IMG/VR virus record: IMGVR_UViG_3300032227_000978
Coordinates: 1 to 40,385 of that record
Direction: 5' to 3' (one strand)
Origin: a virus
Lineage: Duplodnaviria > Caudoviricetes
DNA: 40,385 nt
The translations under genes were made by a program, and so were the position numbers. Under the pieces are notes generated by a model. It did no database searches and was not told where the DNA came from. It was given only the letters and a program-made list of their open reading frames with translations. This document shows positions 6,271-31,200 of the stretch, piece after piece (the first letter of the stretch is position 1; each line of letters begins with the position of its first letter).

Positions 6271-6353
6271 ATAATTAGTTATTGCTTTTATAAATTGACA
6301 TAAGGTACTGGTAATATCTATTGGTAAACTAAGTGTCATTCATAACAGGCTAA

Positions 6354-6361
6354 GATAAATA
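6354..6361 (+). promoter_or_regulatory. T4-like late promoter candidate (GATAAATA)
   Basis: Intergenic, 24 nt upstream of the ATG at 6386 that opens the modular-protein block. Confidence 0.6.
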
Positions 6362-6385
6362 CTTAATCTAGTACGGAATACTGTT

Positions 6386-7855
6386 ATGAAAATTAATCAA
6401 ATTATAGAATCTTCAACTACCGCTGGTTCAGTTGCTACTGTACCTTTTACAATGAATGGTATGCAAACACGAAATCCAAGTATCTATGGACAGAAAAAAG
6501 TAGGTAACTTATTCAAAGGTAAAAAAACTAGTAAACCATATGCCAATAGTCTAACTGAAGGTCGTGTCAAAGAACTTTCAATGGATCTTAAAGATTTAAC
6601 AGATGAAGAATTTCAAAAGAAATATAATCTAACTAAGAAAGAAGCTCGCAAAATGTTAACTTCTAAGCCTGAAAAAGTTAACAGAGATGATTTACAAGAA
6701 GAAGATTTAATTCTAGTTCCAGGACACGGTAGAAACTCAAGAGGCTTCATTTCTAAAGCATCAGACCGAACTGATAGAGAAGTAGAAATGGCTAAAGGCG
6801 ATCTTTATCAGTCTATCAAAAATGCAAAAATGATTTTTGATATGCTTGGTGATGTAAGCGAAGAAGATGGTATCGAAGGCTGGGTACAAGAAAAGATTAT
6901 CAAAGCCAGTGACTATTTAAACACTGTTCGTGAATACATGGAACAGCAAAGATTTGCAAATGAAATGACTGGCGGAGTCATTGGTAACGGTATGGCTGGT
7001 GAAAGTATTGAAGAAGCATATGATCCAAATGATGAATCTGATGTATGGTATCAATTTGACCCATCTAGTAAAAAGATTCTGAGAAAATTTATTAGACATA
7101 CTCAAACACATTTAGCAAAATCACACGGATGGTCAGAATCACCAGACCAAGCTATGAGAGCATATGGTTATTTTCCCAGTAAGTTCAAACCAAATCAATT
7201 TGTAAAGAAAGGTCCTGATGGTAAATGGACCAGCGTAACACCTGTATCCGAATCTAAGAAAAAAGTAAATCCATATGCTGTTGGTATGTCTCAGGCCATG
7301 AAATCATCAGGTGATAAACCACCTTTAAAAAAAAGTACAATAGTCAAAGGTCATGAAATAGCAAAAAAGATTAAAGGAGAAGACCTTGAAGAAGATTGGA
7401 GGAGTAAATTAGCTGGCGCTGCTCTTGCTGGTGCTGCTGCATTTGGTGGCGGAGGTGCTCATGCAGGTGGAATGTCATTGCCTCCCGCAGGACTGACACC
7501 AGCACAAGCTCAAGAATTTATAAACACCCAATTTGCAGGACAACAGGCAATAAATCAACATGCTGCTCAACAACGTGCAGGAAAAATTGACTATACTAAA
7601 GATGGTCCAATTACAAAAAGTTCATTAGGACATAAACTAGAATATGGTATTCCTGTCAATGCCAAAGGTGATTTTATCAATCCTAATAGATTACCGAACA
7701 TTCATGAGTTACCTAGAGATGAAATAGAGGCCATGGCTGAAGCATATCAAGCTTGGCTTAAAGACTACTTAAGTCGTTGGCCTAATGCTAAGCAACAGGC
7801 AGATGGATCAATGCAAGCACTCAAACCCGGTCTTGCACCGATGTACCCTAAATAA
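6386..7855 (+). CDS. Modular hypothetical protein, putative internal head polyprotein
   Basis: N-terminus MKINQIIES resembles the T4 capsid-targeting sequence. Segments are separated by LTE, LQE, IEE, VSE and LEE motifs. Confidence 0.55.
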   Translation: MKINQIIESSTTAGSVATVPFTMNGMQTRNPSIYGQKKVGNLFKGKKTSKPYANSLTEGRVKELSMDLKDLTDEEFQKKYNLTKKEARKMLTSKPEKVNRDDLQEEDLILVPGHGRNSRGFISKASDRTDREVEMAKGDLYQSIKNAKMIFDMLGDVSEEDGIEGWVQEKIIKASDYLNTVREYMEQQRFANEMTGGVIGNGMAGESIEEAYDPNDESDVWYQFDPSSKKILRKFIRHTQTHLAKSHGWSESPDQAMRAYGYFPSKFKPNQFVKKGPDGKWTSVTPVSESKKKVNPYAVGMSQAMKSSGDKPPLKKSTIVKGHEIAKKIKGEDLEEDWRSKLAGAALAGAAAFGGGGAHAGGMSLPPAGLTPAQAQEFINTQFAGQQAINQHAAQQRAGKIDYTKDGPITKSSLGHKLEYGIPVNAKGDFINPNRLPNIHELPRDEIEAMAEAYQAWLKDYLSRWPNAKQQADGSMQALKPGLAPMYPK

Positions 7856-7878
7856 TTAAAAATAAATGAGATAATACC

Positions 7879-10800
7879 ATGAGCAGCATTTTAAAAGGTA
7901 TTGGCAAAGGTACCGACAAGAACCTACAGGGAGATACTAGTGATTTCTATAAAAGTAATGGTTCTAATAACAGTGCTGCTAGCTTGGTTAAGCAGGTCAA
8001 AGTAGCAAGAGACTATATAGGTAAAGACTCCGAGCCAAAAAAAGAACCTGAAGAAACAAACGAATCATACTGGGGAGGACCCAGTCCAGCACAATTGCGT
8101 TTTAATCGTGCTTTAAAAAAACAACAAAATAGTCCTGAAAATAAAGCAGATAGAGAAAAGTTTCAACAAGAACTAGACCGTATCATGCCTCCGCCGAAAA
8201 AGCCTGAAGATGATACTGAAAAACAAGTAACAGAAAAAACTAGCCCAGAGATTTTTAACAGACCAAAGAATGCTCCAATCTTTAGTACCAAACCTGAAAA
8301 AATTGGCAACTATATATTTGATGCTAGTGAATTTGAAGGGTCTATGGTATATGGTAAAGATGCTAAGGGTCTAGTCGTAAAAGCATATGATCCTAAAACT
8401 ATGGATGTTATAGGATCAGCAAGTTTTGTATTAGTTCGTAAAAAAGGTAAGAACGGTGACAGTTGGTTAGAAAGTGATGAAACTAAAGTTCAAGAAAAAT
8501 ATCGTGGTAAGGGTATTGCTACAGCAATGTATCAATATGCTAAAAATCTAGGTAATGATATTAAACCAAGCCCATATAAAAGCAGTGCTGGTGGTGAAAT
8601 GTGGAAAGCTTGGGGTAGAGATGTATTTGAAGATGGTTCGTCCCCACTTAGTGGAAAAACTGACTCGGGGTACACTTGGAAGTTTGAAGCAGGGCGTGAA
8701 GTGCCTTGGAAAAGTGATGTAGCGGCAAACACATTCGTTAGAGTAACTGATCCTGCAGGCAAGACTGTTGCTGGTGTTTGGGCCGATGTAGCGGGTGATT
8801 CACTTGAAGTTGAATATTCTCAAGTGTTTGATGAAGAATTGAGAGGTCGAGGTCTTTATACAGATTTGTTAAAAAGTTTAAGTGACCATTATGATATAAC
8901 ATCAGATACAGATGCAAATAATGCCGCTGTTAACGTATATAAACGATTAGGCGCAGATCATGACACTCGCCAAGCACGGCATACACTTCGTAAGAAAGGT
9001 GTAGCGGAAGGCGGAGCCGAAACAAGTTGGTCAACCGACACTGAAAAAATTACACTGCAGGATATTTTAGAACTAACCGATCATATCAAACAAATAAATT
9101 TACCTATAAACGATAATCTAAAAAGTAAACTAATTCATTGGGACGGAAACCCAGAAGAAATAGAAAGGATTAATCAAGTAATAGTGTCTAACCAGTTTCC
9201 CATTTTAGTTATGTTAGATGAGCAAGGGCAAATACAATTTATACTTGATGGCAACCATAGACTACATAAAGCGATAAAGGCCCAAGCAAAAACAATACCT
9301 GCTAAACTTATTAAACCCGGCGACCTTAACGATAAAGCAAAGAGAATACTTCATATAAACGAGCAAGCGGTGGCGGAAGGCTCGGCACAGATTACTGAAT
9401 TGCGTGATCGTATGTATCAATACATCAAAAGTATAGTACCAATTTGGCCTGATTATGTTGTACAAGATTGGTTGTATAAAGGAAAGGGGAAAAACAAGAA
9501 TTTCAATGCCGATGGCGGGAATATCAAAGACGAAATCCTTAAAATGATCGCAGGAGCAGGATTAAGTCCCAATGTCAATCCTTGGCAACTTGTGCCCAAC
9601 ATGAAGTTTACAATGGATATGTTTGATCCAATAACTAAACAGCGATTAATCGGGCGTGCTGGTGGTAAAAGTGATTTAGGTATGGGTATACCTAAAGACA
9701 AAGAAAGACATGCTACCCAAGCACAACTAGCACAACAGCAAGGTGGTGTTAGAAAAGAACCAGTGCTACTAATAAAAACATCTGAGGGTTACGAACTGTT
9801 AGAAGGTTGGCACAGAACTATTCAACACTTTGCTAAATATCCCGAAGGTTATACAGGTCCTGCGTATGTAGCAGTTGCCCAAGGTCAGCAAGGTGTAGCG
9901 GAAGGCCGAAAAAAGAAAAAGAAAAAAACTTCAAGATCCTTAGGCAGATATTTCTTCCCGGGCTATGGCTATTATGCTAGTGGAGAATCTGGCGAAGGCG
10001 GTGGCGATGGCGGTGGAGGAGAAAGTATGGCAGAAGGCACTAATGTTGACATTGGTGGCATAAAGTTAAATGTTGCGGTTGATGGAGCTGAGGTAATCAT
10101 TCGTCCTATAGTTGATGAATATCAAGCTGGTTATGCTGTATTTGACCGTGATGGCAATACACTAGTACCTGCTGATCTTGCGATTGATGAAGAGTTTCGT
10201 GGTCAAGGAATCGCTAAAATCATTTACGATTATGTAAAAAGTCTTGGATTTAATATTCTTCGCAGCAATGATCAAACTAGAGCAGGTAAACACTTTTGGG
10301 ATAAAAATCGCGGGGAAGGTAGTCAGGTGTGGGAACACGACATGCTTGACGAAGCTTGTTGGAAAGGTTATCACAAAGAAGGTAACAAGAAAATGTTTGG
10401 TAAAACATATCCTAACTGCGTGAAGAATACTAATGAAGGCTATCAACAATGCCCCGAGTGCGGTGGCCCAATGTTTAGCGAAGAAATGATTAACGAAAAG
10501 AAAGATGCTTGCTACTATAAAGTAAAAAGCAGATATAAAGTATGGCCCAGTGCATATGCATCAGGTGCATTAGTACAATGTCGTAAGAAAGGTGCTAACA
10601 ACTGGGGAACAAAGAGTGAAAGTTCTATACTAGAAGGTATAGAACAAACTGATGAGGATTTACATAAATGGTTCAAAGAGAAATGGGTAAGATTTGGACC
10701 TGATGGCAAGATACGTGGTGCTTGCGCTAGAGGTGATGGCAGCGAAGGTAAACCAAAATGTTTACCACAAAGCAAAGCACAGAATTTAGGTAAAAAAGGT

Positions 10801-11127
10801 CGTGCTAGTGCCGCTTCACGCAAACGCAGAGAAGATCCAAATCCCGAACGTAGTGGTAAAGCTATCAATGTTGCTACTAAAAAGAAAACTACCGAAAGTT
10901 CAATTCTTCAAGGTATAAGTGAAACAAAAGGTTTACCAATGCCTGGTTCTTATGAACAAGAATACGGTCCTTTTAAAAAGAAAGGTGGTTATCGTATAAT
11001 GACTCTTACTAGTGAGCAGGAAGAATTAGATGAGAAGTGGAGCAATAAATATAAGAGAAGCATAGATTGCAATCATCCAAAAGGATTTTCACAAAAGGCT
11101 CATTGCCAAGGAAAAAAGAAAAAATGA
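7879..11127 (+). CDS. Multidomain polyprotein: three GNAT acetyltransferase-like, two ParB/Srx-like, Zn-ribbon and small Cys-rich modules
   Basis: GNAT motif A copies YRGKGIA, LRGRGLY and FRGQGIA; ParB-like ILDGNHRL and LLEGWHR; CPECGG; modules joined by GVAEG/AVAEG/MAEG/LDE linkers. Confidence 0.7.
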   Translation: MSSILKGIGKGTDKNLQGDTSDFYKSNGSNNSAASLVKQVKVARDYIGKDSEPKKEPEETNESYWGGPSPAQLRFNRALKKQQNSPENKADREKFQQELDRIMPPPKKPEDDTEKQVTEKTSPEIFNRPKNAPIFSTKPEKIGNYIFDASEFEGSMVYGKDAKGLVVKAYDPKTMDVIGSASFVLVRKKGKNGDSWLESDETKVQEKYRGKGIATAMYQYAKNLGNDIKPSPYKSSAGGEMWKAWGRDVFEDGSSPLSGKTDSGYTWKFEAGREVPWKSDVAANTFVRVTDPAGKTVAGVWADVAGDSLEVEYSQVFDEELRGRGLYTDLLKSLSDHYDITSDTDANNAAVNVYKRLGADHDTRQARHTLRKKGVAEGGAETSWSTDTEKITLQDILELTDHIKQINLPINDNLKSKLIHWDGNPEEIERINQVIVSNQFPILVMLDEQGQIQFILDGNHRLHKAIKAQAKTIPAKLIKPGDLNDKAKRILHINEQAVAEGSAQITELRDRMYQYIKSIVPIWPDYVVQDWLYKGKGKNKNFNADGGNIKDEILKMIAGAGLSPNVNPWQLVPNMKFTMDMFDPITKQRLIGRAGGKSDLGMGIPKDKERHATQAQLAQQQGGVRKEPVLLIKTSEGYELLEGWHRTIQHFAKYPEGYTGPAYVAVAQGQQGVAEGRKKKKKKTSRSLGRYFFPGYGYYASGESGEGGGDGGGGESMAEGTNVDIGGIKLNVAVDGAEVIIRPIVDEYQAGYAVFDRDGNTLVPADLAIDEEFRGQGIAKIIYDYVKSLGFNILRSNDQTRAGKHFWDKNRGEGSQVWEHDMLDEACWKGYHKEGNKKMFGKTYPNCVKNTNEGYQQCPECGGPMFSEEMINEKKDACYYKVKSRYKVWPSAYASGALVQCRKKGANNWGTKSESSILEGIEQTDEDLHKWFKEKWVRFGPDGKIRGACARGDGSEGKPKCLPQSKAQNLGKKGRASAASRKRREDPNPERSGKAINVATKKKTTESSILQGISETKGLPMPGSYEQEYGPFKKKGGYRIMTLTSEQEELDEKWSNKYKRSIDCNHPKGFSQKAHCQGKKKK
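8992..9906 (+). repeat. Dispersed ~21 nt junction repeat, 3 copies (8992-9012, 9361-9381, 9886-9906)
   Basis: AAGAAAGGTGTAGCGGAAGGC, GAGCAAGCGGTGGCGGAAGGC and CAGCAAGGTGTAGCGGAAGGC, each at a domain boundary. Confidence 0.8.
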
Positions 11128-11170
11128 AAGATTATGATTTTTATTGGAATAGAAAAGGATACCCAAAATA

Positions 11171-11611
11171 ATGTTAGCAGATAACTTAAAAACTCTATTA
11201 GGAAGTACATTTGTAGTGTACACAAAAACACACGGATTTCATTGGAATATTGAAGGTCCTGATTTTCCTCAATATCATGAATTTTTGAAAAAAATGTATG
11301 AAAATATTTATGAAACCATTGATACTATCGCTGAATATATCAGAACATTAGATAGTTATTCACCCGGAAGCCTAAGTAGAATGCTTGAACTAAGTATCAT
11401 TGAAGAACAGTATAAAATTCCACGTGCTGAACTAATGCTAGAAGAATTATTAGAAAATTCTGAAACAATGACAAGATTAGTAGTTGAAATATTTGATATT
11501 GCTACCAAACAAAATGCTCAGGGAATTGCTAACTATATGGCTGAATTGCAAGATTTGTATACAAAGAATGCTTGGATGCTACGTGCTACTTTGAAAAAAG
11601 CCCGTGCATAA
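11171..11611 (+). CDS. dps: Dps/ferritin-like DNA protection protein
   Basis: HGFHWNIEGPDFPQYHEF and DTIAEYIR ferroxidase motifs, C-terminal WML, 146 aa. Confidence 0.92.
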   Translation: MLADNLKTLLGSTFVVYTKTHGFHWNIEGPDFPQYHEFLKKMYENIYETIDTIAEYIRTLDSYSPGSLSRMLELSIIEEQYKIPRAELMLEELLENSETMTRLVVEIFDIATKQNAQGIANYMAELQDLYTKNAWMLRATLKKARA

Positions 11612-12384
11612 TGAGACTTACTGAGTTTATGGTAGATGAAGAAATAGTACAAGATGCTATTGTTAGAATACCACAATCTGATGTATCAAGCCATGGTAAG
11701 GATTATATTGATCAATTAGAACGAGCCGCTATCCCCCAAATAAGTGCGATGTTTAAGAAACTAAAGCCTGTTCCCGATGATCAGGATTTAAGATATGGTA
11801 TTATTCCAAAAGATGATGTTGGTCAATATCATGTTATCATAGTTAATAATTCCGATCAGATAATAGGTGACTTGGCATTATCTCTTGTGAAAGATTTTCC
11901 ACTACAGCCTGCATATACTGTAGAGTTCATAACTGTTACAGAAGATTATCGTGGCATGGGTATTGGTAATCTATTATACAAGATAGCACTTAGAGATCAA
12001 GGTATACAATTAATAGCAGGTGAAAGCCAAACTGTAGGTGGTCGTAGAAATTGGATCAGTTTAAGTAAAACACCTGGTGTTACTATATCAGGTTGGGGGT
12101 GGGTCAATGTAAGTGAACAGGCTAACAGTAATCCTGAACTAGTTAAAATTCAAAAGCGATTTGAAAAATCTATGACAAAAGCAGGGGCAAAAAGTTTAGG
12201 TGTTAATAAAGGACCTTCAAATACACTATCTCGTGCGATTAATAAACATTGGTATTTGTTCCCAGTACATGCCGGTGAAAAAGAATTTAAAGCAATCAAC
12301 AATGCTATAAAGATTTATTATAATGATGTATATAATTTACCATTTTTATACAAGGTTGGATTGTTAGCAAATTGGGGTAATTAA
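11611..12384 (+). CDS. GNAT-family acetyltransferase-like protein
   Basis: Start placed at the TAATG overlap with dps (MRLTEFMVDE, capsid-targeting-like). Has DYRGMGIGNLLY motif A and a QTVGGRRNW segment like the other GNAT modules. Confidence 0.7.
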   Translation: MRLTEFMVDEEIVQDAIVRIPQSDVSSHGKDYIDQLERAAIPQISAMFKKLKPVPDDQDLRYGIIPKDDVGQYHVIIVNNSDQIIGDLALSLVKDFPLQPAYTVEFITVTEDYRGMGIGNLLYKIALRDQGIQLIAGESQTVGGRRNWISLSKTPGVTISGWGWVNVSEQANSNPELVKIQKRFEKSMTKAGAKSLGVNKGPSNTLSRAINKHWYLFPVHAGEKEFKAINNAIKIYYNDVYNLPFLYKVGLLANWGN

Positions 12385-12396
12385 GCAAGAATAATA

Positions 12397-12645
12397 TTGG
12401 CAACCATGAATACTACACTAGATTTTAAAACACAGCAAATTGTTAATTCTATCATGTCGGTACTAGAATTGGCTTATAGCCAAGGACGCATAGTGACTTG
12501 GCGTACTATTTTCACGTTCTTAAATTTTCCACCTGCTTCTTGGGAAAATGATGATGATATAGACGATCCAATACAAGTTAATAATGAAAGTGATTTAGTT
12601 ATTATGCGAGCTAGTCTTAGTAGTCACTTTGCTGTAAAACATTAA
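12397..12645 (+). CDS. Hypothetical protein
   Basis: ORF fills the gap between neighbours. Start is TTG 12397 or ATG 12406. Confidence 0.55.
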   Translation: MATMNTTLDFKTQQIVNSIMSVLELAYSQGRIVTWRTIFTFLNFPPASWENDDDIDDPIQVNNESDLVIMRASLSSHFAVKH

Positions 12646-12662
12646 CTAAACTAAATAATAGT

Positions 12663-14393
12663 ATGAGAGCAATTGAGTTTATAATTGAAACCCAAGTCTT
12701 GGACGAAATAGACATGAGTCCAAGTTCATTAAAGCAGTTAGCGGCAGGCACCGGCGCCATGGCAGGTATGGAATTTGAAATGTATGTACCTGATGTTGCA
12801 GGCGGTGAAGATGAAGATTCAAGCCCAGAGCCTGATTATGATGAAGATATACCTGCAAGAAGTCTTGACCAAATATATGAATTTTTTGAAGCCGATGGTG
12901 AGTGGAATAGCCCATTTGAAGTTAGTAGATTACATAGCAAATTACAAGAAGAATATACAGAATGGGTAAGCGAAAAAATAAGTGAAGATTGGGACCATTC
13001 ACCAACCGAGCATGTATATCAATGGGCAAAAGAAAATGTTGAATACGAAGATAGAGATGAACTTGACAAAATAGTTGAAAAGGCTGTAGAAGAAGGCCAT
13101 GGTAATGAAATATATGATCAAGCAGATGAAGCTTTTAGAGAAGATATGCTCGGAGAATATATGAATGATGAATCAAATGAAAGAGAGTTTTTAAGAGATT
13201 CAGGCATTAGATCCATGAGTGATATTGAATCAGGCTATGATATTACTTGGCCATATTGGACATACCCAGAGGCTGAAGGTGAAAGAACTATAAAAGAAGT
13301 TGCCTTACAATTTATGACCGATCTTGGTCTTAATAATATAGCTATAAGTGATAGTTACCATGGTAGTTATTATATGTCAGGAGGAAGTAACGATTGGAAA
13401 CCTATTGGTCGTAGTAAACCAAATGATACTTATACTATAGAACCAGATGGTAGTCTTACTTCAAAGAAAGAACCTAGTGATTCAGGTTTAGAATTTGTAA
13501 GTAATCCATTGCCCTTAGATGAAATGATTACTAGTTTAAATGAAGTAGTTCAATGGGCTAGAACAAATAATTGTTATACTAATAGAAGTACAGGTTTACA
13601 CATGAATGTAAGTGTACCTGGGTGTAGCCGTGAAAAATTAGACTATGTAAAACTTGCGCTATTATTAGGTGATGAATATGTATTAGACCAATTTGATCGT
13701 TCAGCAAATAGTTTCGCAAAAAGTGCAATGAGTAGTCTAAAGACTAGAGCCACCTATATACAGGGTGAACCGGAGTTACTTACTTTTTTTGATGAAATGA
13801 GAAAGGGTTTAAGTGTAGAGGCAGCAAAACTTATTCATAGTGGAATTACTGGCAAATATGTTAGTATTAATGCTAAAGAAGGCTATATTGAATTTCGCAG
13901 CCCGGGTGGCGATTGGTTAAATGAAGATATACCTAAATTAGAAAATACACTATTAAGATTTGTAGTAGCATTAGATGCTGCTTGCGATCCACAAAAATAT
14001 CGCACAGAATATCTTAAAAAATTATATAAATTATTAAAACCTACAACAAAAGGTGACGCACTTGATGTTTTTGCTAAGTATTCATCTGGTCAATTACAGA
14101 AACAAGACTTAATAACTTTACTTAAAAGAGCAAGAGGCATACAAAAACCCGCAGGCCCTATTAAAGCAAAAGTAAGTGCAGGTCCTGCTGAACCTGCATT
14201 TGGTCAACCACCAAGCAGAAATAATGAATATCAAATTTATGACAGTAGAACTGGTGAAGAATATGAACTTTTTCAGGCACGGGATGATGAACAAGCATTG
14301 GCAAGATTAGATGATTATCGTCGCATGGCTAGAAATAGTGCTAGTTCACTAGATCCCAATAGGTTTGTTCTCCGTCATGTGGTGAATGCATAA
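12663..14393 (+). CDS. Putative amidoligase (COOH-NH2 ligase type 2)
   Basis: GMEFE, EPDGSL, GLEFVS, STGLHMNV, KYVSIN and IEFRSPGG motifs; N-terminus MRAIEFIIE. Confidence 0.8.
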   Translation: MRAIEFIIETQVLDEIDMSPSSLKQLAAGTGAMAGMEFEMYVPDVAGGEDEDSSPEPDYDEDIPARSLDQIYEFFEADGEWNSPFEVSRLHSKLQEEYTEWVSEKISEDWDHSPTEHVYQWAKENVEYEDRDELDKIVEKAVEEGHGNEIYDQADEAFREDMLGEYMNDESNEREFLRDSGIRSMSDIESGYDITWPYWTYPEAEGERTIKEVALQFMTDLGLNNIAISDSYHGSYYMSGGSNDWKPIGRSKPNDTYTIEPDGSLTSKKEPSDSGLEFVSNPLPLDEMITSLNEVVQWARTNNCYTNRSTGLHMNVSVPGCSREKLDYVKLALLLGDEYVLDQFDRSANSFAKSAMSSLKTRATYIQGEPELLTFFDEMRKGLSVEAAKLIHSGITGKYVSINAKEGYIEFRSPGGDWLNEDIPKLENTLLRFVVALDAACDPQKYRTEYLKKLYKLLKPTTKGDALDVFAKYSSGQLQKQDLITLLKRARGIQKPAGPIKAKVSAGPAEPAFGQPPSRNNEYQIYDSRTGEEYELFQARDDEQALARLDDYRRMARNSASSLDPNRFVLRHVVNA

Positions 14394-19434: not shown

Positions 19435-19763
19435 TTAAAATTAATCATTCAGGTAGTATGCCATTTTTTCAAAATGATACTTCATATAATTTACCAAGTG
19501 TTACCGGGTCTGTTCAATGGAACGGCATGAGTAAAAAATTTCAGGTAAGTAATGGCACTGGTTGGATAGATATTGAAAATTCAATAAATTTAAATGCTGA
19601 CCATGATTATCTGATGATCTTGAGATGGGCTAGAGAAAAAATGCATGAAGAACACGAACTAGAAAAGCTAGCAAAAGAAAATACTACTCTTAAAGATTTA
19701 GTTGACCAACTCAACTACACTAAAGAGCAGATTAAAGTGGTTACTACGCTCTTAAAAGCATAA
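19431..19763 (+). CDS. Hypothetical protein
   Basis: Translationally coupled on both sides; C-terminal coiled-coil character. Confidence 0.65.
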   Translation: MIKINHSGSMPFFQNDTSYNLPSVTGSVQWNGMSKKFQVSNGTGWIDIENSINLNADHDYLMILRWAREKMHEEHELEKLAKENTTLKDLVDQLNYTKEQIKVVTTLLKA

Positions 19764-21310
19764 TGGAACAAGTAAATCTATCAGCCGCACACGATCCCAA
19801 TTGGGCACTATTCTTACCAGCAGTTAGTAGTTTCTACATTGCTGGCTTGGGTAAACAGCGCAATGGTGAAGAATATTTTGACGCTGCAAGAATCCCACAA
19901 GGGTTTGGCGGTGATGTAGAAAAACTAAACTTTCTTAATAGTAAAGAAGGACTGTACTACTATAAGTGGGGACTTTACTCTGCTGGTCACGCTAATTTGG
20001 ATACTACTAAAGTTGACTTCAACGAAAGTATTATCCGTGACCGCGAAGCAGATACTTTCATGCTAGGTGATTCAGGTGGTTTTCAAATTCTTAAAGGTCA
20101 ATGGCCCGCAGATTGGAAAGATCCCAACTGTCCCAAAGCAATGATTAAGCGTAAAGCAGTTCTAAATTGGATGGACACATACATGGACTATGGAATGTGT
20201 CTTGATATTCCTTCGCAATCTCTACGCACATTTCATTTAAAAGACCCAAAGACTGGCAAATCACTGCATGGTATCAGTACCATTCAAGAGGCTATTGATG
20301 CTACTCATATCAATAACAAATACTTTATTGAGAACCGTAATGGTAACTGCAAGTTTTTAAATGTTCTACAGGGTCTTACACATACTCAAAGTGATCAATG
20401 GTATGAAGAGATGAAAAAGTACTGTGATTCAAATATCTATCCTGAAAATCATTTCAATGGTTGGGCATTTGGCGGACAAACTAAGATCGATATTCATCTT
20501 ACACTTAAACGAATCGTGGGTATTATCCATGATGGTCTTTTACAAGAAGGTAAACATGATTTGATTCATTGTTTGGGCACAAGTATCTTAGAATATGCTG
20601 TACTTTTTTCAGATATCCAACGAGCGGTTCGTAAATATCATAATCCAAAACTACAGATTACTTTTGACTGCGCTAGTCCATTTTTCAGTGCGGCTAAAGG
20701 ACTAGCATATTTCAATACCAGTATTGAGCATAATAAGAAATGGTCCTATAGCATGGAAAAAACCGCAGAGAAAAAATCTTATGCTACAGACAATCGTAAA
20801 TTCCGTGACGGTGTATTACAAGATGGTGTCCATAAACTGTTTACAGATAGTCCAGTAACTGATAGAATGATGATTAAGGACTTGTGCTACAGAGGTCAAG
20901 GGTTCGTCGGTCAACATGGTAAAGAAACAAAAACTAGTTGGGACACACTAAGTTACACTCTACTTCAAAGTCACAATGTATATCAGCATATCTATGCGGT
21001 ACAAGAGGCTAATCGTAGATATGAGCAAGGTATCATTCCAAAGATGATTATGAATGAAACATTTGAGCGTATTCGTTTTAGTGAAATTGTAGATGAAATT
21101 TTCTCTATCAAAGACCGTCAAAAAAGTTTGGACTTGATAGATCATCATAGTAGATTTTGGATGCAAATGCAAAGTGGTAGTCAAGGATTTAGTGGTAAGA
21201 AAACAGTAAATGCCATGACTATGTTTGATCAATTATTCGCTACAGAGGAACCCGAAGAAGAAACAATTGAAGACAGTGATGATATGATGAATGAAATATT
21301 GGAGAATTAA
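19763..21310 (+). CDS. dpdA: TGT-fold guanine transglycosylase, DpdA-like (7-deazaguanine insertion into DNA)
   Basis: TGT motifs in order: DSGGFQ, LDIP, VLQG, GWAFGG, IHCLG, FDC, SHNV. No CxCxxC zinc site. Clustered with folE/queD/queE and replication genes. Confidence 0.75.
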   Translation: MEQVNLSAAHDPNWALFLPAVSSFYIAGLGKQRNGEEYFDAARIPQGFGGDVEKLNFLNSKEGLYYYKWGLYSAGHANLDTTKVDFNESIIRDREADTFMLGDSGGFQILKGQWPADWKDPNCPKAMIKRKAVLNWMDTYMDYGMCLDIPSQSLRTFHLKDPKTGKSLHGISTIQEAIDATHINNKYFIENRNGNCKFLNVLQGLTHTQSDQWYEEMKKYCDSNIYPENHFNGWAFGGQTKIDIHLTLKRIVGIIHDGLLQEGKHDLIHCLGTSILEYAVLFSDIQRAVRKYHNPKLQITFDCASPFFSAAKGLAYFNTSIEHNKKWSYSMEKTAEKKSYATDNRKFRDGVLQDGVHKLFTDSPVTDRMMIKDLCYRGQGFVGQHGKETKTSWDTLSYTLLQSHNVYQHIYAVQEANRRYEQGIIPKMIMNETFERIRFSEIVDEIFSIKDRQKSLDLIDHHSRFWMQMQSGSQGFSGKKTVNAMTMFDQLFATEEPEEETIEDSDDMMNEILEN

Positions 21311-21311
21311 T

Positions 21312-21524
21312 ATGCCATATAAATCTCAAATTAAAAATTTACAAGAAGCTTATCAAAAATTAGATACTGAAATTTTTTCATTGACAAAAAGTGAGAATAA
21401 AGACCAAGCAATGCTTCAAGACTTGATCGGTAAACGATCAAAAATTCAACTTGATATTAGAAAATTGCAGAAACTTCAATGGGAAGAAGAACATGACCGA
21501 GTCAATTTTGAGGATGACAGATAA
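21312..21524 (+). CDS. Small coiled-coil hypothetical protein
   Basis: GGAG RBS before the ATG at 21312; heptad pattern; TAATG coupling to the next gene. Confidence 0.65.
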   Translation: MPYKSQIKNLQEAYQKLDTEIFSLTKSENKDQAMLQDLIGKRSKIQLDIRKLQKLQWEEEHDRVNFEDDR

Positions 21525-21973
21525 TGGAACAAGCAGCACTCGCAAAACAAGAAAAGCGTAACCATATTAAAGAACAAGCTAAACGCATGATTTGGGTTAC
21601 TTTTCAAAAAGAAGGTATTCATTGTTATCCAGCGGCAGCAATTGATGCTGCTCTAGCAACAGGTGATGAATATGATGTAAGCTTTCTAGGAACTCCGCAT
21701 CGTCACATTTTTCATTTCAATGTGGCGATTCAAGTATTTCACAACGACAGGGATATTGAGTTTATTCAGTTTAAGCGATGGTTGGAAAACCTTTATCGTG
21801 GTACACTAGAATTGAACCATAAAAGTTGTGAAATGATTAGTGATGACTTATACTTAGCTATCGCTAATCGCTATCCCGACCGTGACATTAATATCACTGT
21901 ATCGGAAGATGGTGAGAACGGTGCCACAATTTATTACAACACAACCAAACCTTATCAACAACTTGCTATTTAA
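21524..21973 (+). CDS. dpdL: QueD-like T-fold protein, DpdL-like (putative CDG decarboxylase)
   Basis: LGTPHRHIF fits the LxxxHRHxF signature I recall for DpdL. Also DRDIEF, SCEM and VSEDGENG. A canonical QueD is encoded separately. Confidence 0.65.
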   Translation: MEQAALAKQEKRNHIKEQAKRMIWVTFQKEGIHCYPAAAIDAALATGDEYDVSFLGTPHRHIFHFNVAIQVFHNDRDIEFIQFKRWLENLYRGTLELNHKSCEMISDDLYLAIANRYPDRDINITVSEDGENGATIYYNTTKPYQQLAI

Positions 21974-21985
21974 AGGAAAAATATA

Positions 21986-22195
21986 ATGGCAAAATTCAAT
22001 TTTCAACCCAATAGCCGTGTACATGCAATTTTCGACGACCTCGAAAAGTATCGGGATTTTTGTGTAGAATATGGCTATCGTTTTAACGAAGCCGAACTCT
22101 ATAGCACTAAAAGCTATGTATATAGGCAATATACCAAACTCTTGCAGGGTAAAGCTGTCAAGAGTATGTGGGATGCTGATATGAAACCAACCTGA
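21986..22195 (+). CDS. Hypothetical protein
   Basis: AAGGA RBS; TGATG coupling to the glycosyltransferase. Confidence 0.65.
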   Translation: MAKFNFQPNSRVHAIFDDLEKYRDFCVEYGYRFNEAELYSTKSYVYRQYTKLLQGKAVKSMWDADMKPT

Positions 22196-23370
22196 TGCGT
22201 AAGCTATTTTACATGGGCTTGGAGCCCTATAAGGCTCGTTACACACTACAATTACAAGAGTGGAATGAACGTGTATTTAAACGGCGTAAGATTAATTATG
22301 TAATCGTACCTGGTGAAACACTAACTACTGACCAAGCCATCGTAACAGGTCAGGTCCTAGATGCACATGGTCGCACATACTTTGGTATGAGCCAACTAAT
22401 GAATCTAGTTAAAATGATGAAGGCAGGAGAATGTACCAATGAAGATATTATCTACTTTGAGGACATGTTTCAGCCGGGAATCGAGAGCTTACCTTATATT
22501 CTCAATCAAATCAACCCTGAGCATCGTCCTCGCATTTTTGTTCGCTGTCTTGCTCAGTCTATTGATCCAGATGATTTTGTTCATGTCTGGGGCATGTCAG
22601 AGTGGATGGGCCATTATGAAAAAATGGTTGACTCGTTCGTAGATGGTGTACTTGCTACTAACGAAGAAATGGTCATGCATATGAAGATAGCAGGTTGGAA
22701 GGCACCAATCTATAATATCTCGGGTCTTGCATTTGGTCTTGATGAAGTACAAAGCCGTGTTGAGCAAATTAAAAACTTCAACGATCGGCGTATGCGTGTG
22801 GTGTTCAGTTCACGATGGGATCAAGAAAAACAACCTGATTTTTATATGGATCTGATTGAAGCATATTATGCCTCACATCCAAATCACAATACTGAATTTG
22901 TTATCTGTAGTGGCGGTAATCTTAAGTCAAACAACCAATCTTACATGAGCAGGACTCGCAAGTTTGAAGAAAAGGGTTGGTTAACGGTTTACGAGAACTT
23001 AGAAAAAAATGCTTATTATAATATTCTTAATGATAGTCGGGTCGTCTTTAATTGCGCCCTTCAAGATTGGGTTTCCAACACAGTCAGTGAAGCAGATAGT
23101 CTTGGGTGTAATGTTTTATTCCCTGCTTATCGGTCTTTCCCTGAAACTTTTTCTAATGACCATACAAGACTTTATGTACCTTGGTCAATAGAAGATGCAC
23201 TAGCAAAACTAGAAAAATTGTTGGCCAAACCTCACAGTAATATTGGTAAGATTAGCAAGTATAATGATGGTACTATTGACCGTATTTGTGACATTTTACA
23301 AGGCAAAGGTCATAGTATGTTGAGAATGTCTACTGACTACAGGAAATATCTCAGAGAAAGTAAATATTGA
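22195..23370 (+). CDS. GT-B fold glycosyltransferase
   Basis: SSRWDQEKQP and ALQDWVSNTVSEADSLGC match the nucleotide-sugar-binding motifs of retaining GT4-like enzymes (D/E-x7-E). Confidence 0.75.
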   Translation: MRKLFYMGLEPYKARYTLQLQEWNERVFKRRKINYVIVPGETLTTDQAIVTGQVLDAHGRTYFGMSQLMNLVKMMKAGECTNEDIIYFEDMFQPGIESLPYILNQINPEHRPRIFVRCLAQSIDPDDFVHVWGMSEWMGHYEKMVDSFVDGVLATNEEMVMHMKIAGWKAPIYNISGLAFGLDEVQSRVEQIKNFNDRRMRVVFSSRWDQEKQPDFYMDLIEAYYASHPNHNTEFVICSGGNLKSNNQSYMSRTRKFEEKGWLTVYENLEKNAYYNILNDSRVVFNCALQDWVSNTVSEADSLGCNVLFPAYRSFPETFSNDHTRLYVPWSIEDALAKLEKLLAKPHSNIGKISKYNDGTIDRICDILQGKGHSMLRMSTDYRKYLRESKY

Positions 23371-23440
23371 TAAATACTAATGTCACACAACGGTGACAAA
23401 ATGTCAAAACAAAACCATCACAACGGAGGGTTATCAAATG
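23369..23440 (+). promoter_or_regulatory. folE leader: GATAAATA promoter candidate plus two hairpins with identical ACAACG loops
   Basis: TGTCAC-ACAACG-GTGACA at 23381-23398 and AACCATC-ACAACG-GAGGGTT at 23413-23432. The second hairpin contains the GGAGG RBS. Confidence 0.6.
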
Positions 23441-24112
23441 AGTTTTAATAAAACTAAAACAAGTCCTGAACTAGGACTAAGAGTACATGAACATCTAGTA
23501 AAGATGGGAGTTGAAACTCCTACTATTGCAAACGGTATTGATCGTAAAGAAAAGATTGATAAAATTGAGCATCATTTTCGTGAGATTATGAGTACTCTTG
23601 GATTGGATCTAACTGATGACAGTCTAATAGAAACACCCAATCGTGTTGCAAAAATGTATGTACAAGAAATATTTTGGGGACTTGATTATGAAGCATTCCC
23701 AAAATGTACTACAGTAGACAACAAAATGCATTACGATGAAATGGTAGTTGAACGCAATATCAATGTTCAAAGTAACTGTGAACATCATTTTGTGGTTATT
23801 GATGGATTAGCGACCGTAGCTTATGTACCAAAAAGAAAGGTATTGGGTCTTAGTAAAATTAATCGTATTGTAGAATACTTTAGTAAGAGACCACAAATTC
23901 AAGAAAGGTTGACTGAACAGATTTTCTATGCATTACAATTTATCCTTGAAACAAATGATGTTGCGGTTATGATTGATGCTAGACATTATTGTGTGGTATC
24001 AAGGGGAGTTGAGGATACCGGTAGTAGTACTGTTACTACTAGGCTTGGTGGCGGATTCAAATCTGATCCTGAAGTTCGTAATGAATTCTATCAGATTGCA
24101 AGGATGCGATAA
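23438..24112 (+). CDS. folE: GTP cyclohydrolase I
   Basis: ETPNRVAKMY, SNCEHHF, GLSKINRIV, RPQIQERLT and HYCVVSRG. Start placed after GGAGG. Confidence 0.96.
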   Translation: MSFNKTKTSPELGLRVHEHLVKMGVETPTIANGIDRKEKIDKIEHHFREIMSTLGLDLTDDSLIETPNRVAKMYVQEIFWGLDYEAFPKCTTVDNKMHYDEMVVERNINVQSNCEHHFVVIDGLATVAYVPKRKVLGLSKINRIVEYFSKRPQIQERLTEQIFYALQFILETNDVAVMIDARHYCVVSRGVEDTGSSTVTTRLGGGFKSDPEVRNEFYQIARMR

Positions 24113-24237
24113 TGTTGATAATGTTGACATTAGCTGTAATTCTTGCTATAATATATTTTTCAATCTTTAAAACTCCATCTAATCTCAATTGCAATGGAAA
24201 TTGCAATCAAGGTAGAAACTGTACATGTAAGGTATAA
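24112..24237 (+). CDS. 41 aa membrane microprotein with Cys-rich tail (not in ORF track)
   Basis: TAATG coupling to folE; MLIMLTLAVILAIIYFSIF hydrophobic helix followed by CNGNCNQGRNCTC. Confidence 0.6.
   Translation: MLIMLTLAVILAIIYFSIFKTPSNLNCNGNCNQGRNCTCKV
24124..24152 (+). promoter_or_regulatory. Perfect-consensus sigma70 promoter
   Basis: TTGACA-17 nt-TATAAT with extended -10 TG. Confidence 0.75.
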
Positions 24238-24239
24238 AG

Positions 24240-24476
24240 ATGGGCTTTAAAAAACCATTAGATTTAAATATGGTCTGTCATCAAATTAGACTAGCAGGAA
24301 GAGAGCTTCGTAGTCTATACAACGACGGATTCACTCAATGGGAAATAAAAAAAGAGTTATATCATATTAAATTTATGTTAGATGATATCATTGAAAGTTC
24401 CAGTAAGTTTACAGGTGAAGAAGAATTCTTAAAAGAAGAATCTCAAAACAGAGTGATTAATATTTTAAAAAGGTAA
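24240..24476 (+). CDS. Hypothetical protein
   Basis: AAGGT RBS; tightly packed in the operon. Confidence 0.65.
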   Translation: MGFKKPLDLNMVCHQIRLAGRELRSLYNDGFTQWEIKKELYHIKFMLDDIIESSSKFTGEEEFLKEESQNRVINILKR

Positions 24477-24480
24477 TAAA

Positions 24481-24687
24481 ATGAAAGAATTTACATTGAA
24501 AAAAGTAGCTGGCTATGAACTCAGAGTTAAAAGTAATAAATGTGTTAGTCCTAAAGATTTAAACCACATTGAATTTGTACAAGAAACAAAAAATAAAGAT
24601 GATGAAGTAGTTGATACTTCTACATATCAATTCTTTTTATCTAATGATGAAGTTAGCCTTCTTGTTAAAAGCTTGGCAACAATCTAA
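24481..24687 (+). CDS. Hypothetical protein
   Basis: AAGGT RBS; TAATG coupling to queD. Confidence 0.65.
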   Translation: MKEFTLKKVAGYELRVKSNKCVSPKDLNHIEFVQETKNKDDEVVDTSTYQFFLSNDEVSLLVKSLATI

Positions 24688-25232
24688 TGGCAAAGTTCTA
24701 TTCAACTAAAACATATGGTAATGATCGTGGATTAAGTTGCTGTTTTAGGCAATGGCGTGCTACGCATAGTCATTGTAGCACTCTACATGGTTATAGCATT
24801 GGGATCAAACTAGTATTTGAATGTGAAACACTAGATGACAAAAACTGGTGCATGGACTTTGGTGGTCTAAAAGAATTTAAAGCATGGGCAGACTATATGT
24901 TTGACCATACACTGGTTATTGCTCATGATGATCCTCATTTAGAATTTTTCAAGCAAATGGCATTAATCGATACCGATTGGACTTTACCCGAAACTGGTTT
25001 GGATGAAATGCAAGTTAATAGAGACAATTTTGAGCCGTACCAAAGAGGATCACTTTGTGACTTACGCATTGTAGAAGGTGTAGGTTGTGAAATGTTTGCT
25101 AAGTTATGTTATGACAAAATGGCCGAATTATTAGCTAGTGGTAACATGCGATATCCCATTAACCCTAATGTAAGAATTAAAAGTACCGAGGTTTTTGAGC
25201 ATGGAGCCAACTCAGCTACCTACGAGGGTTAG
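24687..25232 (+). CDS. queD: 6-carboxy-5,6,7,8-tetrahydropterin synthase
   Basis: CSTLHGY (CxxxHG), MDFG, FDH, GCE and C-terminal VFE; lies between folE and queE. Confidence 0.85.
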   Translation: MAKFYSTKTYGNDRGLSCCFRQWRATHSHCSTLHGYSIGIKLVFECETLDDKNWCMDFGGLKEFKAWADYMFDHTLVIAHDDPHLEFFKQMALIDTDWTLPETGLDEMQVNRDNFEPYQRGSLCDLRIVEGVGCEMFAKLCYDKMAELLASGNMRYPINPNVRIKSTEVFEHGANSATYEG

Positions 25233-25401: not shown

Positions 25402-25590
25402 ATGAGTGATATCAGAGACCGTATGGCAGAATTAATGGAACCCATTGATCGACAAATAATGATGTGTGACAACAGAGAAGATGTGCTAATGTTAGCCTGT
25501 GCCATGCTAACTTCGGCAAGAGTTATATTTGATCAGGAACTAGGCAAGAAGGCACGAATACAACTATTCAAAGATTATACAAATGAATAA
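25402..25590 (+). CDS. Hypothetical protein
   Basis: ORF overlapping the queE start. Confidence 0.6.
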   Translation: MSDIRDRMAELMEPIDRQIMMCDNREDVLMLACAMLTSARVIFDQELGKKARIQLFKDYTNE

Positions 25591-26434
25591 AATTAAAATA
25601 AGCGAACTTTTTTACAGTATTCAAGGAGAAGGCCCTTATATGGGAGTACCAAGTGTGTTCCTTCGCACATTTGGCTGTAATTTCACTTGCGATGGATTTG
25701 GTATGTCACGTGGTGAAAAAAGTCTAGAAAGAATTCAGGTAGCATTTGCTCATGGAAATACTCCTTATAAAGACTATAAAGAACTGCCACTAGTAAGCAC
25801 AGGTTGCGACAGTTATGCCAGTTGGGATCCAGCATTTAAAGAACTGAGTCCTGTACTTACTACAGATGCTATCGTTAATCGCATTATAGAAATTCTTCCA
25901 CATAACGAATGGCGTGATGAACACCTGGTTATTACAGGTGGAGAACCTCTATTGGGTTGGCAACGTAGTTATCCTGATTTATTAAATCATCTAAAAATGC
26001 ATGGTTTAAAAGAAATTACTTTTGAAACAAATGGTACTCAAAAACTAACTCCAGAATTTAAATTAGTATTGAAAGAATGGAGAAAATGGTATAATCGTGA
26101 AATTACATTTAGTGTCAGTGCTAAACTGCCTTGTAGTGGTGAAGCATGGGATGATGCTATCAAACCCGAAGTGGTATGTGAATACGAACAATATGGAACA
26201 GCCTATCTAAAATTTGTGATAGCCACAGAACAGGACTTTGCTGATGCTGAATGCGCTATTGCCGCTTACCGTAGTGCAGGATTTAAAGGTCATGTTTATC
26301 TGATGCCAGTGGGCGGTGTTGAAAGTGTATATTCAATGAATAATCGTAATGTAGCCATGCTAGCCATGAAACATGGACTAAGATATAGTGATAGGCTTCA
26401 GGTACCTCTGTTCAAAAACCAATGGGGAACCTGA
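25583..26434 (+). CDS. queE: 7-carboxy-7-deazaguanine synthase (radical SAM)
   Basis: ELFYSIQGEG, VFLRTFGCNFTC...GCDS, ITGGEP, FETNG, SAK and LKFV. Confidence 0.9.
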   Translation: MNKIKISELFYSIQGEGPYMGVPSVFLRTFGCNFTCDGFGMSRGEKSLERIQVAFAHGNTPYKDYKELPLVSTGCDSYASWDPAFKELSPVLTTDAIVNRIIEILPHNEWRDEHLVITGGEPLLGWQRSYPDLLNHLKMHGLKEITFETNGTQKLTPEFKLVLKEWRKWYNREITFSVSAKLPCSGEAWDDAIKPEVVCEYEQYGTAYLKFVIATEQDFADAECAIAAYRSAGFKGHVYLMPVGGVESVYSMNNRNVAMLAMKHGLRYSDRLQVPLFKNQWGT

Positions 26435-29416: not shown

Positions 29417-31200
29417 TAATGCTTTAATAATAGAGTGCCTAATACACCTGGATCATTTGCCGTTAAATCAGGCTCCCCGGGGGCAACAATAACATTCCAT
29501 TTCATGGATTTATTATTTTTACCCTTAGTATTCCATTCATCATAACTTAGAATACTATTTTTGCTTATACCATACTTATCGGCTAGACGTTGTTTTAGTT
29601 CAGGTAATTCATCAGGTATTACTTGCCATTGACCTTCGGGTCCTTTAACTAAATTCTTTTTAGAATCCTTAACCAATAGGTCATAAAACAAACTACTAGG
29701 AACGATACGGCTATTCTTAGTTGTATCTAAGTTTGGATCATTTCTCTTAATTTGTTTTTCTTGGCTAGTACTTGCACCTTCACTCCAGTTGATAATAAAG
29801 TTAGCTGGTTTACCAGCCATTGCAGCAGCCGCTACTTTAGTATAAGCATAAAACTTAACATTAGGTAATGATTGAGCTAATTTAAATGCCATGTCCATAT
29901 ACTCAGGGCTAAAGAAGTCACCAGCATCATGCCAACGAATACTTACTGAGTAACCACCTTTTTGGCCTTTTGCTGCTTCTTTAGTAATTTCTGATTTTAA
30001 TTGTTCAAAGAATTCATTAGGATGATTTAAGAGATATGTAAGTATGCGACCATCACTTAACCATGGACCAGCAAATTGAACCTTACCGCCCTTCATAGCA
30101 AAGCAATCTACTTTACAACTACCAGCACCTGGACATGTATTAACAACAATTAATTCATTTGTGTTTTCATCTAGTGCGATGCCAACTAGTGCGGCGAAGC
30201 CAATATTAAAGAATTGTTCTTGTGCTCCGTCACTATGCTTCATCTTCTCATTCTTTTTGAGAAGTTTTTCAGGCTTTTGTGCTAGACCTTTTTTGATAGC
30301 ATCGGTGTCATATTTTTTGCCTTCAGCATTATAGTATCCAACTACTGAACTACGATGTACATAAGGTAAGTTATATTTGTCTGTTTTTTTCTTGTCTTGA
30401 TTACGAATACGGTCTAGATAATCTGTTAGTTCTTGACCTTTTAATTCACGGGTGCTAGCAGGTAGTGCTGTTGCTTCCGCCACACCTTGCTGACCAAAAG
30501 AATCAAAATGTTCTTGAGCTTGTTTTTTAGATTTATATCTATAAATCTCACCTGTAGGAGTTGTAACTTTCCATTCAACATGGTCAGTTGTTCTACCTGC
30601 AGGGTTTGTAGTTCTTTCAATCTTTGGGGTAGTAGTTACTACTGGTCTAATATACTTTTTGAATTTGTCTAATTCACCTTCTGCTATATGTTCGTCACCA
30701 ACTTCAGTTGCCTTGCCACCGGCTAAGTATACCAATTCTTGTATATCTCCCCAATCCTTTCGAGGAGCGACCATAGCATCACCGTGCCAGTCAATCACAT
30801 CACCAAATTTTTTCATAACTTGGTTGTAAGCGTTTTCACTATCAACTTCAAAATCTACAGTATCACCTGAGCTTTCCGCTACACCTTTCTTGCCGTACAT
30901 ATCAAGCATTTGTCCAATATAGAAAGCATAAAATTGTGGACGTTCATTATATTCCATTTCACCAAGGACTGTTTTTAATGCTGCTATAGCATCAGCCGGT
31001 GTCCCCCCATGCATTATTTGTAATGCTCTAGTAACAAGTCGGTCAACTCTTTGTGAACTTTCCGCTACCTCTTGTTCGGGTTCAGGTTCTTCACCTTGAG
31101 CAGATTTAGCAATAAACTGCTGAGGGGTCATTATTTGAATGCCTTCGGCAGCACCGGGTAATTTTGGAACAGTCCCTTCGTATAACTCTTTGAGGTTCAT
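29416..31200 (-). CDS. Modular polyprotein with C-terminal GP88-like (Cys-cluster) domain
   Basis: N-terminus MNLKELYEG; linkers EVAES, GVAES, IAEG and GVAEA; C-terminal TCPGAGSCKVDCFA, RWHDAGDFFS and FYAYTK. Confidence 0.7.
   Translation of the reverse strand: MNLKELYEGTVPKLPGAAEGIQIMTPQQFIAKSAQGEEPEPEQEVAESSQRVDRLVTRALQIMHGGTPADAIAALKTVLGEMEYNERPQFYAFYIGQMLDMYGKKGVAESSGDTVDFEVDSENAYNQVMKKFGDVIDWHGDAMVAPRKDWGDIQELVYLAGGKATEVGDEHIAEGELDKFKKYIRPVVTTTPKIERTTNPAGRTTDHVEWKVTTPTGEIYRYKSKKQAQEHFDSFGQQGVAEATALPASTRELKGQELTDYLDRIRNQDKKKTDKYNLPYVHRSSVVGYYNAEGKKYDTDAIKKGLAQKPEKLLKKNEKMKHSDGAQEQFFNIGFAALVGIALDENTNELIVVNTCPGAGSCKVDCFAMKGGKVQFAGPWLSDGRILTYLLNHPNEFFEQLKSEITKEAAKGQKGGYSVSIRWHDAGDFFSPEYMDMAFKLAQSLPNVKFYAYTKVAAAAMAGKPANFIINWSEGASTSQEKQIKRNDPNLDTTKNSRIVPSSLFYDLLVKDSKKNLVKGPEGQWQVIPDELPELKQRLADKYGISKNSILSYDEWNTKGKNNKSMKWNVIVAPGEPDLTANDPGVLGTLLLKH
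30472..31074 (-). repeat. Dispersed junction repeat, 3 copies (30472-30495, 30871-30891, 31057-31074)
   Basis: Minus-strand GGTCAGCAAGGTGTGGCGGAAGCA, AAGAAAGGTGTAGCGGAAAGC and CAAGAGGTAGCGGAAAGT; same motif as at 8992-9906. Confidence 0.8.

Follow-up and report, generated by a model that had tools for sequence, protein, structure and literature searches.

Module joints in polyproteins of uncultured giant freshwater phages coincide with a 15-base coding motif, a likely recombination joint and predicted head-protease cut site

The window analysed here (40,385 nt) is a whole 40-kb record and represents a fragment of a large T4-like jumbo phage. Two of its genes encode chains of small modules, polyproteins 1 and 2, in which short linkers with a common nucleotide core lie between the modules:

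7879..11127, plus strand: polyprotein 1 (1082 aa; ORF list, Pfam and orthologue comparison), with the order GNAT, GNAT, ParB-like, ParB/Srx-like, short basic/Gly-rich module, GNAT, small basic modules (DUF5872)
8996..9010, plus strand: linker core copy 1, KKGVAEG, one mismatch, GTA
9010..9366, plus strand: cassette A, ParB-like by its DGNHR motif only
9365..9379, plus strand: linker core copy 2, EQAVAEG, two mismatches
9379..9891, plus strand: cassette B, predicted ParB/sulfiredoxin fold
9890..9904, plus strand: linker core copy 3, QQGVAEG, one mismatch, GTA
10022..10036, plus strand: decayed linker copy, SMAEG, with GCA here and GCG in L287 and L291
29416..31200, minus strand: polyprotein 2 (594 aa), with leader MNLKELYE, an N-terminal segment, three small cassettes and a C-terminal GP88 domain
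31059..31073, minus strand: linker core copy, EQEVAES, four mismatches
30873..30887, minus strand: linker core copy, KKGVAES, two mismatches
30678..30692, minus strand: decayed linker copy, HIAEG
30474..30488, minus strand: linker core copy, QQGVAEA, perfect core, ahead of GP88

The initial annotation had placed six copies of the motif, or close variants of it, at apparent domain boundaries of two genes on opposite strands. All six are present, in frame and at module borders of the two ORFs, and those within each gene are direct repeats; the copy at 31057 has four mismatches to the 15-nt core. The reported identities also hold, with 18 identical nt between the copies at 8992 and 30891 and 21 of 22 between those at 9883 and 30495. 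Scanning the window with AAGGTGTRGCGGAA at no more than two mismatches gave seven matches versus 0.32 expected, a number reached in none of 100 shuffles; the seventh, at 19361 in the ORF that follows the DNA polymerase, uses GTT GCT codons and looks like a chance match. The proposed module labels fared unevenly. GP88 in polyprotein 2 has a strong Pfam match, whereas the three GNAT modules have weak ones. The predicted model of cassette B, the second ParB-like module, has exclusively ParB/sulfiredoxin folds as its top matches, at E of 0.02 or weaker, and in relatives this cassette also occurs as the first module, or as a stand-alone gene, directly behind a leader MRAxEF[IL]xE. For cassette A, the first ParB-like module, Pfam and PDB searches returned no match, and its label depends on the DGNHR motif, which we take to be ParB-like. 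Contigs of an RNA run (X20) cover parts of polyprotein 2, which has no bearing on expression.

The codons of the linkers are far from ordinary. Alanine is encoded by GCG in all six window copies, as the initial annotation had noticed, versus 51 of the 590 Ala codons of the window ORFs (P about 4e-7). It had also set these copies against looser linkers with GCA; the window does have GCA there, but the GCG that orthologues (L287, L291 and L212) have at these positions shows the SMAE and HIAE linkers to be decayed copies of this very motif. An 18-nt pattern is found in an estimated 830 IMG/VR stretches, with at least 132 loci among the matches listed. As these 132 loci were chosen by DNA pattern, the codon test was redone in two ways. 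Among GVAE peptides without a seed match in the DNA-fetched loci (n=95), GGT is used in 93, GTG in 86 and GCG in 80; in 197 protein-fetched loci the corresponding numbers are 156, 132 and 140 of 161, versus backgrounds of 53%, 12% and 7%. The glycine following GVAE is mostly GGC (71, with GGT in 23 and GGA in 3; GGC background 0.20), deviations from the single consensus are mostly G-to-A, and near matches in the protein-fetched ORFs all lie on the coding strand in one frame (216/216). Furthermore, in a de novo count no 12-mer family other than that of the core had a multitude of different flanks. In a relative, the scaffold-like, core and capsid proteins never use GCG at their [ILVM]AE sites (0/7), and thus the codons are not imposed merely by a peptide of the protease type. 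Constraint on the motif as DNA, and not just as peptide, is therefore supported, in agreement with the initial annotation. The notion that peptide constraint and recent common descent account for everything, the DNA having no special role, is very improbable and already largely refuted: the peptide is under selection, but the GCG excess over background, the ordinary codons of structural-protein xAE sites and the meeting of unrelated flanks at the core alone all speak against it, and Gly and Ala, although other residues can take their place (DVAE, SVAE, GVTE, GVSE), have fixed codons. In one relative (G003:177208-177233, L141, minus strand) two copies lie 12 nt apart and encode a tandem GVAEGVAE with no module between them.

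The extent of the motif was delimited by a linkage analysis of 532 non-redundant copies, in which pairs were scored by shared upstream or downstream module. Only the upstream module is shared by 243 pairs and only the downstream one by 323, versus 13 collinear pairs sharing both. The 15-nt core, AAGGTGTGGCGGAAG, is delimited by the end of linkage to the upstream module, at −3, and the start of linkage to the downstream module, at +14. Perfect copies have a ratio of one-flank to collinear pairs, which are mutually non-independent, of 195:4. Copies with 1–2 mismatches have 114:5 and those with 3–4 have 36:9, whereas in the same ORFs the remaining [VILM]xE sites reach 961:869 and the remaining Glu residues 2532:3632. 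The motif is nevertheless not the only joint, because module changes are also numerous at ordinary LDE/ILE/VDE sites, with a one-flank partner for 400 of 1254 sites.

Alignment of orthologues likewise places gain, loss and swapping of modules at the core, as had been proposed. The slot from 9010 to the third GNAT is occupied by different cassettes in four close polyprotein 1 orthologues, and the module after linker copy 1 is not the same in L288, L289 and L291. Five full-length homologues of cassette A (80–85% identity), two of them with the same flanks, all reside in other contexts. GP88 orthologues (80 loci, 63 non-redundant) range from zero cassettes to many; L274 and L279, with GP88 DNA 84% identical, carry the same three modules (97–100% identity) in circularly permuted order, and one module recurs with 100% identity in a GP88 gene (L273), in L328 and in L008. 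For contigs of related lake strains, agreement with the window begins or breaks off at 9010, 9887, 30474-30491, 30877-30883 and 31062-31071. At linker copy 1 the match of one such contig (run X6) ends at 9010, and at copy 3 another (run X3) joins at 9887, coming from another module; in polyprotein 2, matches end at 31071 (X7) and 31062 (X4), pieces of X7 end at 30877 and begin at 30883, and the copy ahead of GP88 takes part in joints 30474-30689, 30483-30688 and 30491-31085 in other strains. Further strain joints lie away from the six copies, some of them at other xxE sites. Moreover, in 30 (non-independent) triplets of empty and filled sites, the informative empty sites read as left/right hybrids. 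At the HIAEG site, L212 is without the following cassette and has HVAE with codons GTG GCG. In total, 289 distinct motif-bounded segments with a median of 80 aa were obtained. The 15-base core is thus the point of in-frame module gain, loss and reordering, as well as of exchange between genes and between phages. Neither of the two outcomes that the initial annotation had named as speaking against its proposal, ordinary codon variation of VAE linkers across relatives and indel breakpoints between orthologues that fail to coincide with the motif, was observed.

Contigs mis-joined at a short repeat could mimic such a pattern, and contigs do often end near the motif: it lies within 500 bp of a contig end in 16 of 73 contigs versus 4.9 expected, or in 13 if the first-listed copy is used, an excess that is weak because the copy nearest the end was chosen in multi-copy contigs. 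The 524-kb record G003 (L133-L152), rated complete, also looks chimeric. It contains two diverged DnaJ/ClpB/polyprotein/Dps blocks in opposite orientation, its 176-kb motif spacing is repeated at 524 kb, and it probably consists of two related phages joined. An assembly artefact is nonetheless barely credible, as window positions 6300-12700 lie within one contig of the probable source run, swapped modules differ by 0–17% between copies and codon bias cannot come from assembly. Excised circles were not seen in assembled contigs of seven runs, a type of data that drops rare forms. One joint in X2 that goes back from 10428 to 9019, at a depth of 2.3, was considered as a circle and rejected, another module order explaining it equally well; positions 9082-9723 are uncovered in X6 and mostly uncovered in X2, which we do not count as evidence alone.

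How the modules move is best explained, in our opinion with a reasonable degree of probability, by short-homology recombination at a self-reinforcing consensus, similar to that of PeSL cassettes but coding and in frame. Modules would exchange at AAGGTGTGGCGGAAG, likely by means of the phage's own T4-type machinery. Exchange between two copies would yield hybrid sites and would need near-perfect identity, consensus-flanked modules would move and spread, decayed sites would freeze, and the rare codons might thereby be held against AT drift. Crossover intervals, in motif positions, are scattered: 2–4 (L212/window), at or before 6 (L344/L337 and L350/L322), 6–9 (L289/L288) and 9–13 (L133/L307). 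In L259 and L188 one rare variant is common to both flanks, which pairing of like with like would predict. Variants within the core rarely go together with one or the other flank (position 6: 1/15 and 2/20), so these intervals may be blurred by later mutation. Within-locus sharing of variants is weak, with none at position 6 (p 0.88) and uncorrected p of 0.02–0.07 at four others. An ORF-by-ORF Pfam scan covered the first 360 kb of the 524-kb record G003 and, within it, 287 of the 290 ORFs with 120 aa or more. The matches include RecA/UvsX (PF00154), gp32, a UvsW-like helicase, a Rad50/Mre11-like pair (gp46/47-like) and gp23; no integrase, Cas1 or transposase is among the matches listed, most ORFs being without a family. 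For T4 itself, recombination at microhomologies of 6–10 bp is described in the available part of a report (PMC9391042). Taken together, the scattered crossovers, hybrid empty sites, T4 microhomologies and PeSL circles favour homology exchange over a dedicated enzyme.

Such an enzyme, sequence-specific and of an unrecognised family, would be either a recombinase or a nickase that starts homologous exchange, making the locus an integron-like in-frame domain assembler. We consider it unlikely, and equally so its programmed version, in which single-domain cassettes would be inserted and reordered at the 15-bp site, also the code for the head-protease cut, to give interchangeable arrays of injected anti-defence proteins drawn from a clade-wide pool. 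It would account for one sharp consensus across divergent phages, a consensus that represents the sole 12-mer family with many flanks, for the abrupt linkage edges and for several crossovers near positions 2–7, and a Pfam family is lacking for well over half of the 287 ORFs scanned. Indeed, a single consensus across phages with GP88 only 65% identical is a point against short-homology recombination and is also expected from a sequence-specific protein. However, tyrosine recombinases (PF00589) were not found in any of 10 motif-bearing records, four of them rated at least 90% complete, nor were serine recombinases (PF00239), reverse transcriptases (PF00078) or IS110 transposases (PF02371) in any of five. 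The six window copies fold no better into a hairpin than shuffles do (z −1.7 to +0.3) and have no dyad by inspection, crossover intervals are not at one fixed base, and a guide or att-like non-coding copy is lacking, as two relatives (620 kb) have 15 near matches, every one of them a coding copy in frame. Integrons and shufflons are cassette arrays bounded by repeated sites, and the shufflon makes in-frame fusions. Within the records and sites searched, the phage system differs from the former in having neither an IntI tyrosine recombinase nor an attC-like hairpin, from the latter in its direct rather than inverted repeats and in the absence of the Rci and invertase families, and from IS110 bridge-RNA and reverse-transcriptase systems in the missing families and non-coding site copy. 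The integron- or shufflon-like site-specific system suggested by the initial annotation is so far not supported.

A role of the motif in RNA or translation (ribosome pause at domain borders, internal ribosome binding, G-quadruplex or tRNA-like structure), with swaps occurring only via the shared stretch, would agree with its invariable position in frame on the coding strand, its rare codons and the AGGTG and four GG pairs that it contains. We regard this role as quite improbable: there is no conserved fold, GTA breaks the second GG in four of the six window copies, and the hybrid empty sites and the decay gradient would be left unexplained. The motif has what we take to be a resemblance to a tRNA 5' end, but such an origin was rejected, as 38 phage tRNA genes gave no match with fewer than three mismatches in 12. 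A G-quadruplex formed by the four GG pairs was likewise discarded because of the GTA copies. A Chi-like host site was dismissed, as the motif is limited to a few loci per genome, unlike the genome-wide Chi, and so was duplication of a whole target site, since the upstream module carries bases −5 to −3 along with it and a variant in L362/L364 is kept by the left site only.

At the peptide level the constraint is different. Gly and Ala of GVAE are freely replaced, Val changes to Met or Leu only, and Glu rarely changes; in all four distinct cases of Glu-to-Lys (GVAK) another [LIVM]xE lies 4–7 residues on, the DNA remaining near consensus. The T4 head-protease site has the form I/L-x-E. The motif peptide fits such a cut site, as the initial annotation had supposed for a protease, and a gp21-family protease (PF03420; S77) is encoded in the relative G003 (L150:13668-14309) between portal and gp23, though not in the window fragment. 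Several window genes start with leaders ending in Glu, namely, MNLKELYE, MRIKELLE, MRITEIISE and MKINQIIE, whereas polyprotein 1 starts with MSSILKGIGK and is without a clear MxxxELxE leader. We therefore read V-A-E as a predicted head-protease cut that would free each module after packaging into the head; by analogy with T4 biology, the released modules might enter the host together with the injected DNA and counteract its defences. Adjacent leader-bearing genes (window:28598-29416 and 31207-31887) lose or replace modules at xxE sites in other strains, with joints 28983-29409 and 31545-31795, and the letters between 31545-31795 read toward a SVAE-type linker. A second recurring peptide, S[SN]IL[KEQ]G[IL]xE, starts polyprotein 1 (window:7879, degenerate) and reappears inside it at 10621-10644 and 10907-10926; L302 starts with MSNILKGLNE, and this peptide may represent another type of leader that has been put to use again within the chain.

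Repoila et al. 1994 reportedly dealt with T-even internal-protein polymorphism and could hold a precedent. Among known systems, the closest are PeSL cassettes of the T4-type phages RB49 and phi1, in which, according to the available text, short direct repeats surround small variable ORFs, repeat recombination deletes the cassette and leaves one hybrid repeat, mini-circles were demonstrated by inverse PCR and the need for a helper recombinase was left open (PMC2839356). Cassette gain or loss leaves one hybrid repeat here too. By contrast, PeSL is an intergenic promoter/stem-loop that moves whole genes, whereas the present site has 15 nt, is coding, in frame and without hairpin, and the circles demonstrated for PeSL have no counterpart among our contigs. 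The T4 internal proteins, as far as the available portions of the reports go, combine a capsid-targeting sequence with gp21 processing and resemble the present system in short N-terminal leaders ending in Glu (PMC5694885, PMC3012670, PMC9391042), the gp21-family protease (here in a relative) and diverse small cargo; T4-type head proteases cut after Glu (PMC5694885). They are, however, single small genes with one propeptide, unlike the many-module chain with DNA-fixed internal sites. Polyvalent proteins of phages and conjugative elements are similarly multi-domain and injected, include GNAT and ParB-like domains and are proposed to be cut into units, although the accessible text ascribes processing mainly to an internal metallopeptidase, and the word 'linker' is absent from its main text (PMC5512222). 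Two or more unrelated effector domains per chain, a feature of polyvalent proteins, are found here, but Pfam detects none of their typical, though not universal, MPTase or ArdC-N hub domains in either window protein. By analogy, the system appears to combine shuffling of the PeSL kind with processing as in T4 internal proteins, and it falls outside integrons, shufflons and PeSL proper. No description of such a system was found in the full-text literature available to the search (including PMC7824862 and PMC12373910, the latter not mentioning polyproteins in its available text), most subscription papers and supplements being outside its scope.

The system is real, dual-coded and placed exactly at module joints, the cut being predicted, and one 15-base string is likely both the recombination joint and the head-protease cut site. 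If this is right, a large phage clade possesses a plug-and-play library of head-packaged proteins, in which a single short string keeps the frame, permits exchange and releases each unit. The motif divides long hypothetical proteins into exact units, providing candidate injected anti-defence proteins to screen. Furthermore, the PeSL question of whether a helper enzyme is needed becomes testable, as recoding of the site can leave the peptide as it is.

The motif is widespread within one clade, uncultured giant freshwater phages. The habitats named for runs with window DNA are freshwater or lake metagenomes, relatives rated complete or near-complete have 335–364 kb, and one motif-bearing relative has a capsid protein with 62–67% identity to those of 285–470 kb jumbo phages. 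The window DNA polymerase shares 49% identity with its counterpart in Sinorhizobium phage Phosso and 47% with that in Atu_ph07; these two cultured phages have no match to the motif at up to two mismatches. In the GTDB collection a 20-mer has six matches, five of them single and in GC-rich DNA, the sixth being an AT-rich contig with three copies. A cellular source of the motif was rejected, since this contig (L374), from a Bacteroidetes MAG and with the same modules, looks like, and is likely, a mis-binned piece of phage and gives no evidence of the host. G003 encodes a two-piece tmRNA (L147:8480-8896) with the tag ANDSQFSIAA, which could help to point to a host, and 30 tRNA genes (L138-L139). 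In the window (19763-25232 and 25583-26434), GTP cyclohydrolase-, 6-pyruvoyl-tetrahydropterin-synthase- and radical-SAM-like genes, labelled from translations and Pfam matches of syntenic G003 genes, adjoin a 515-aa ORF, which suggests a putative 7-deazaguanine DNA modification. Finally, small basic modules (DUF5872, DUF6321 and phrog_727; window:10350-11124 and 31207-31600) are common to hundreds of marine cyanophages (365 records), the core genes of which are distant.
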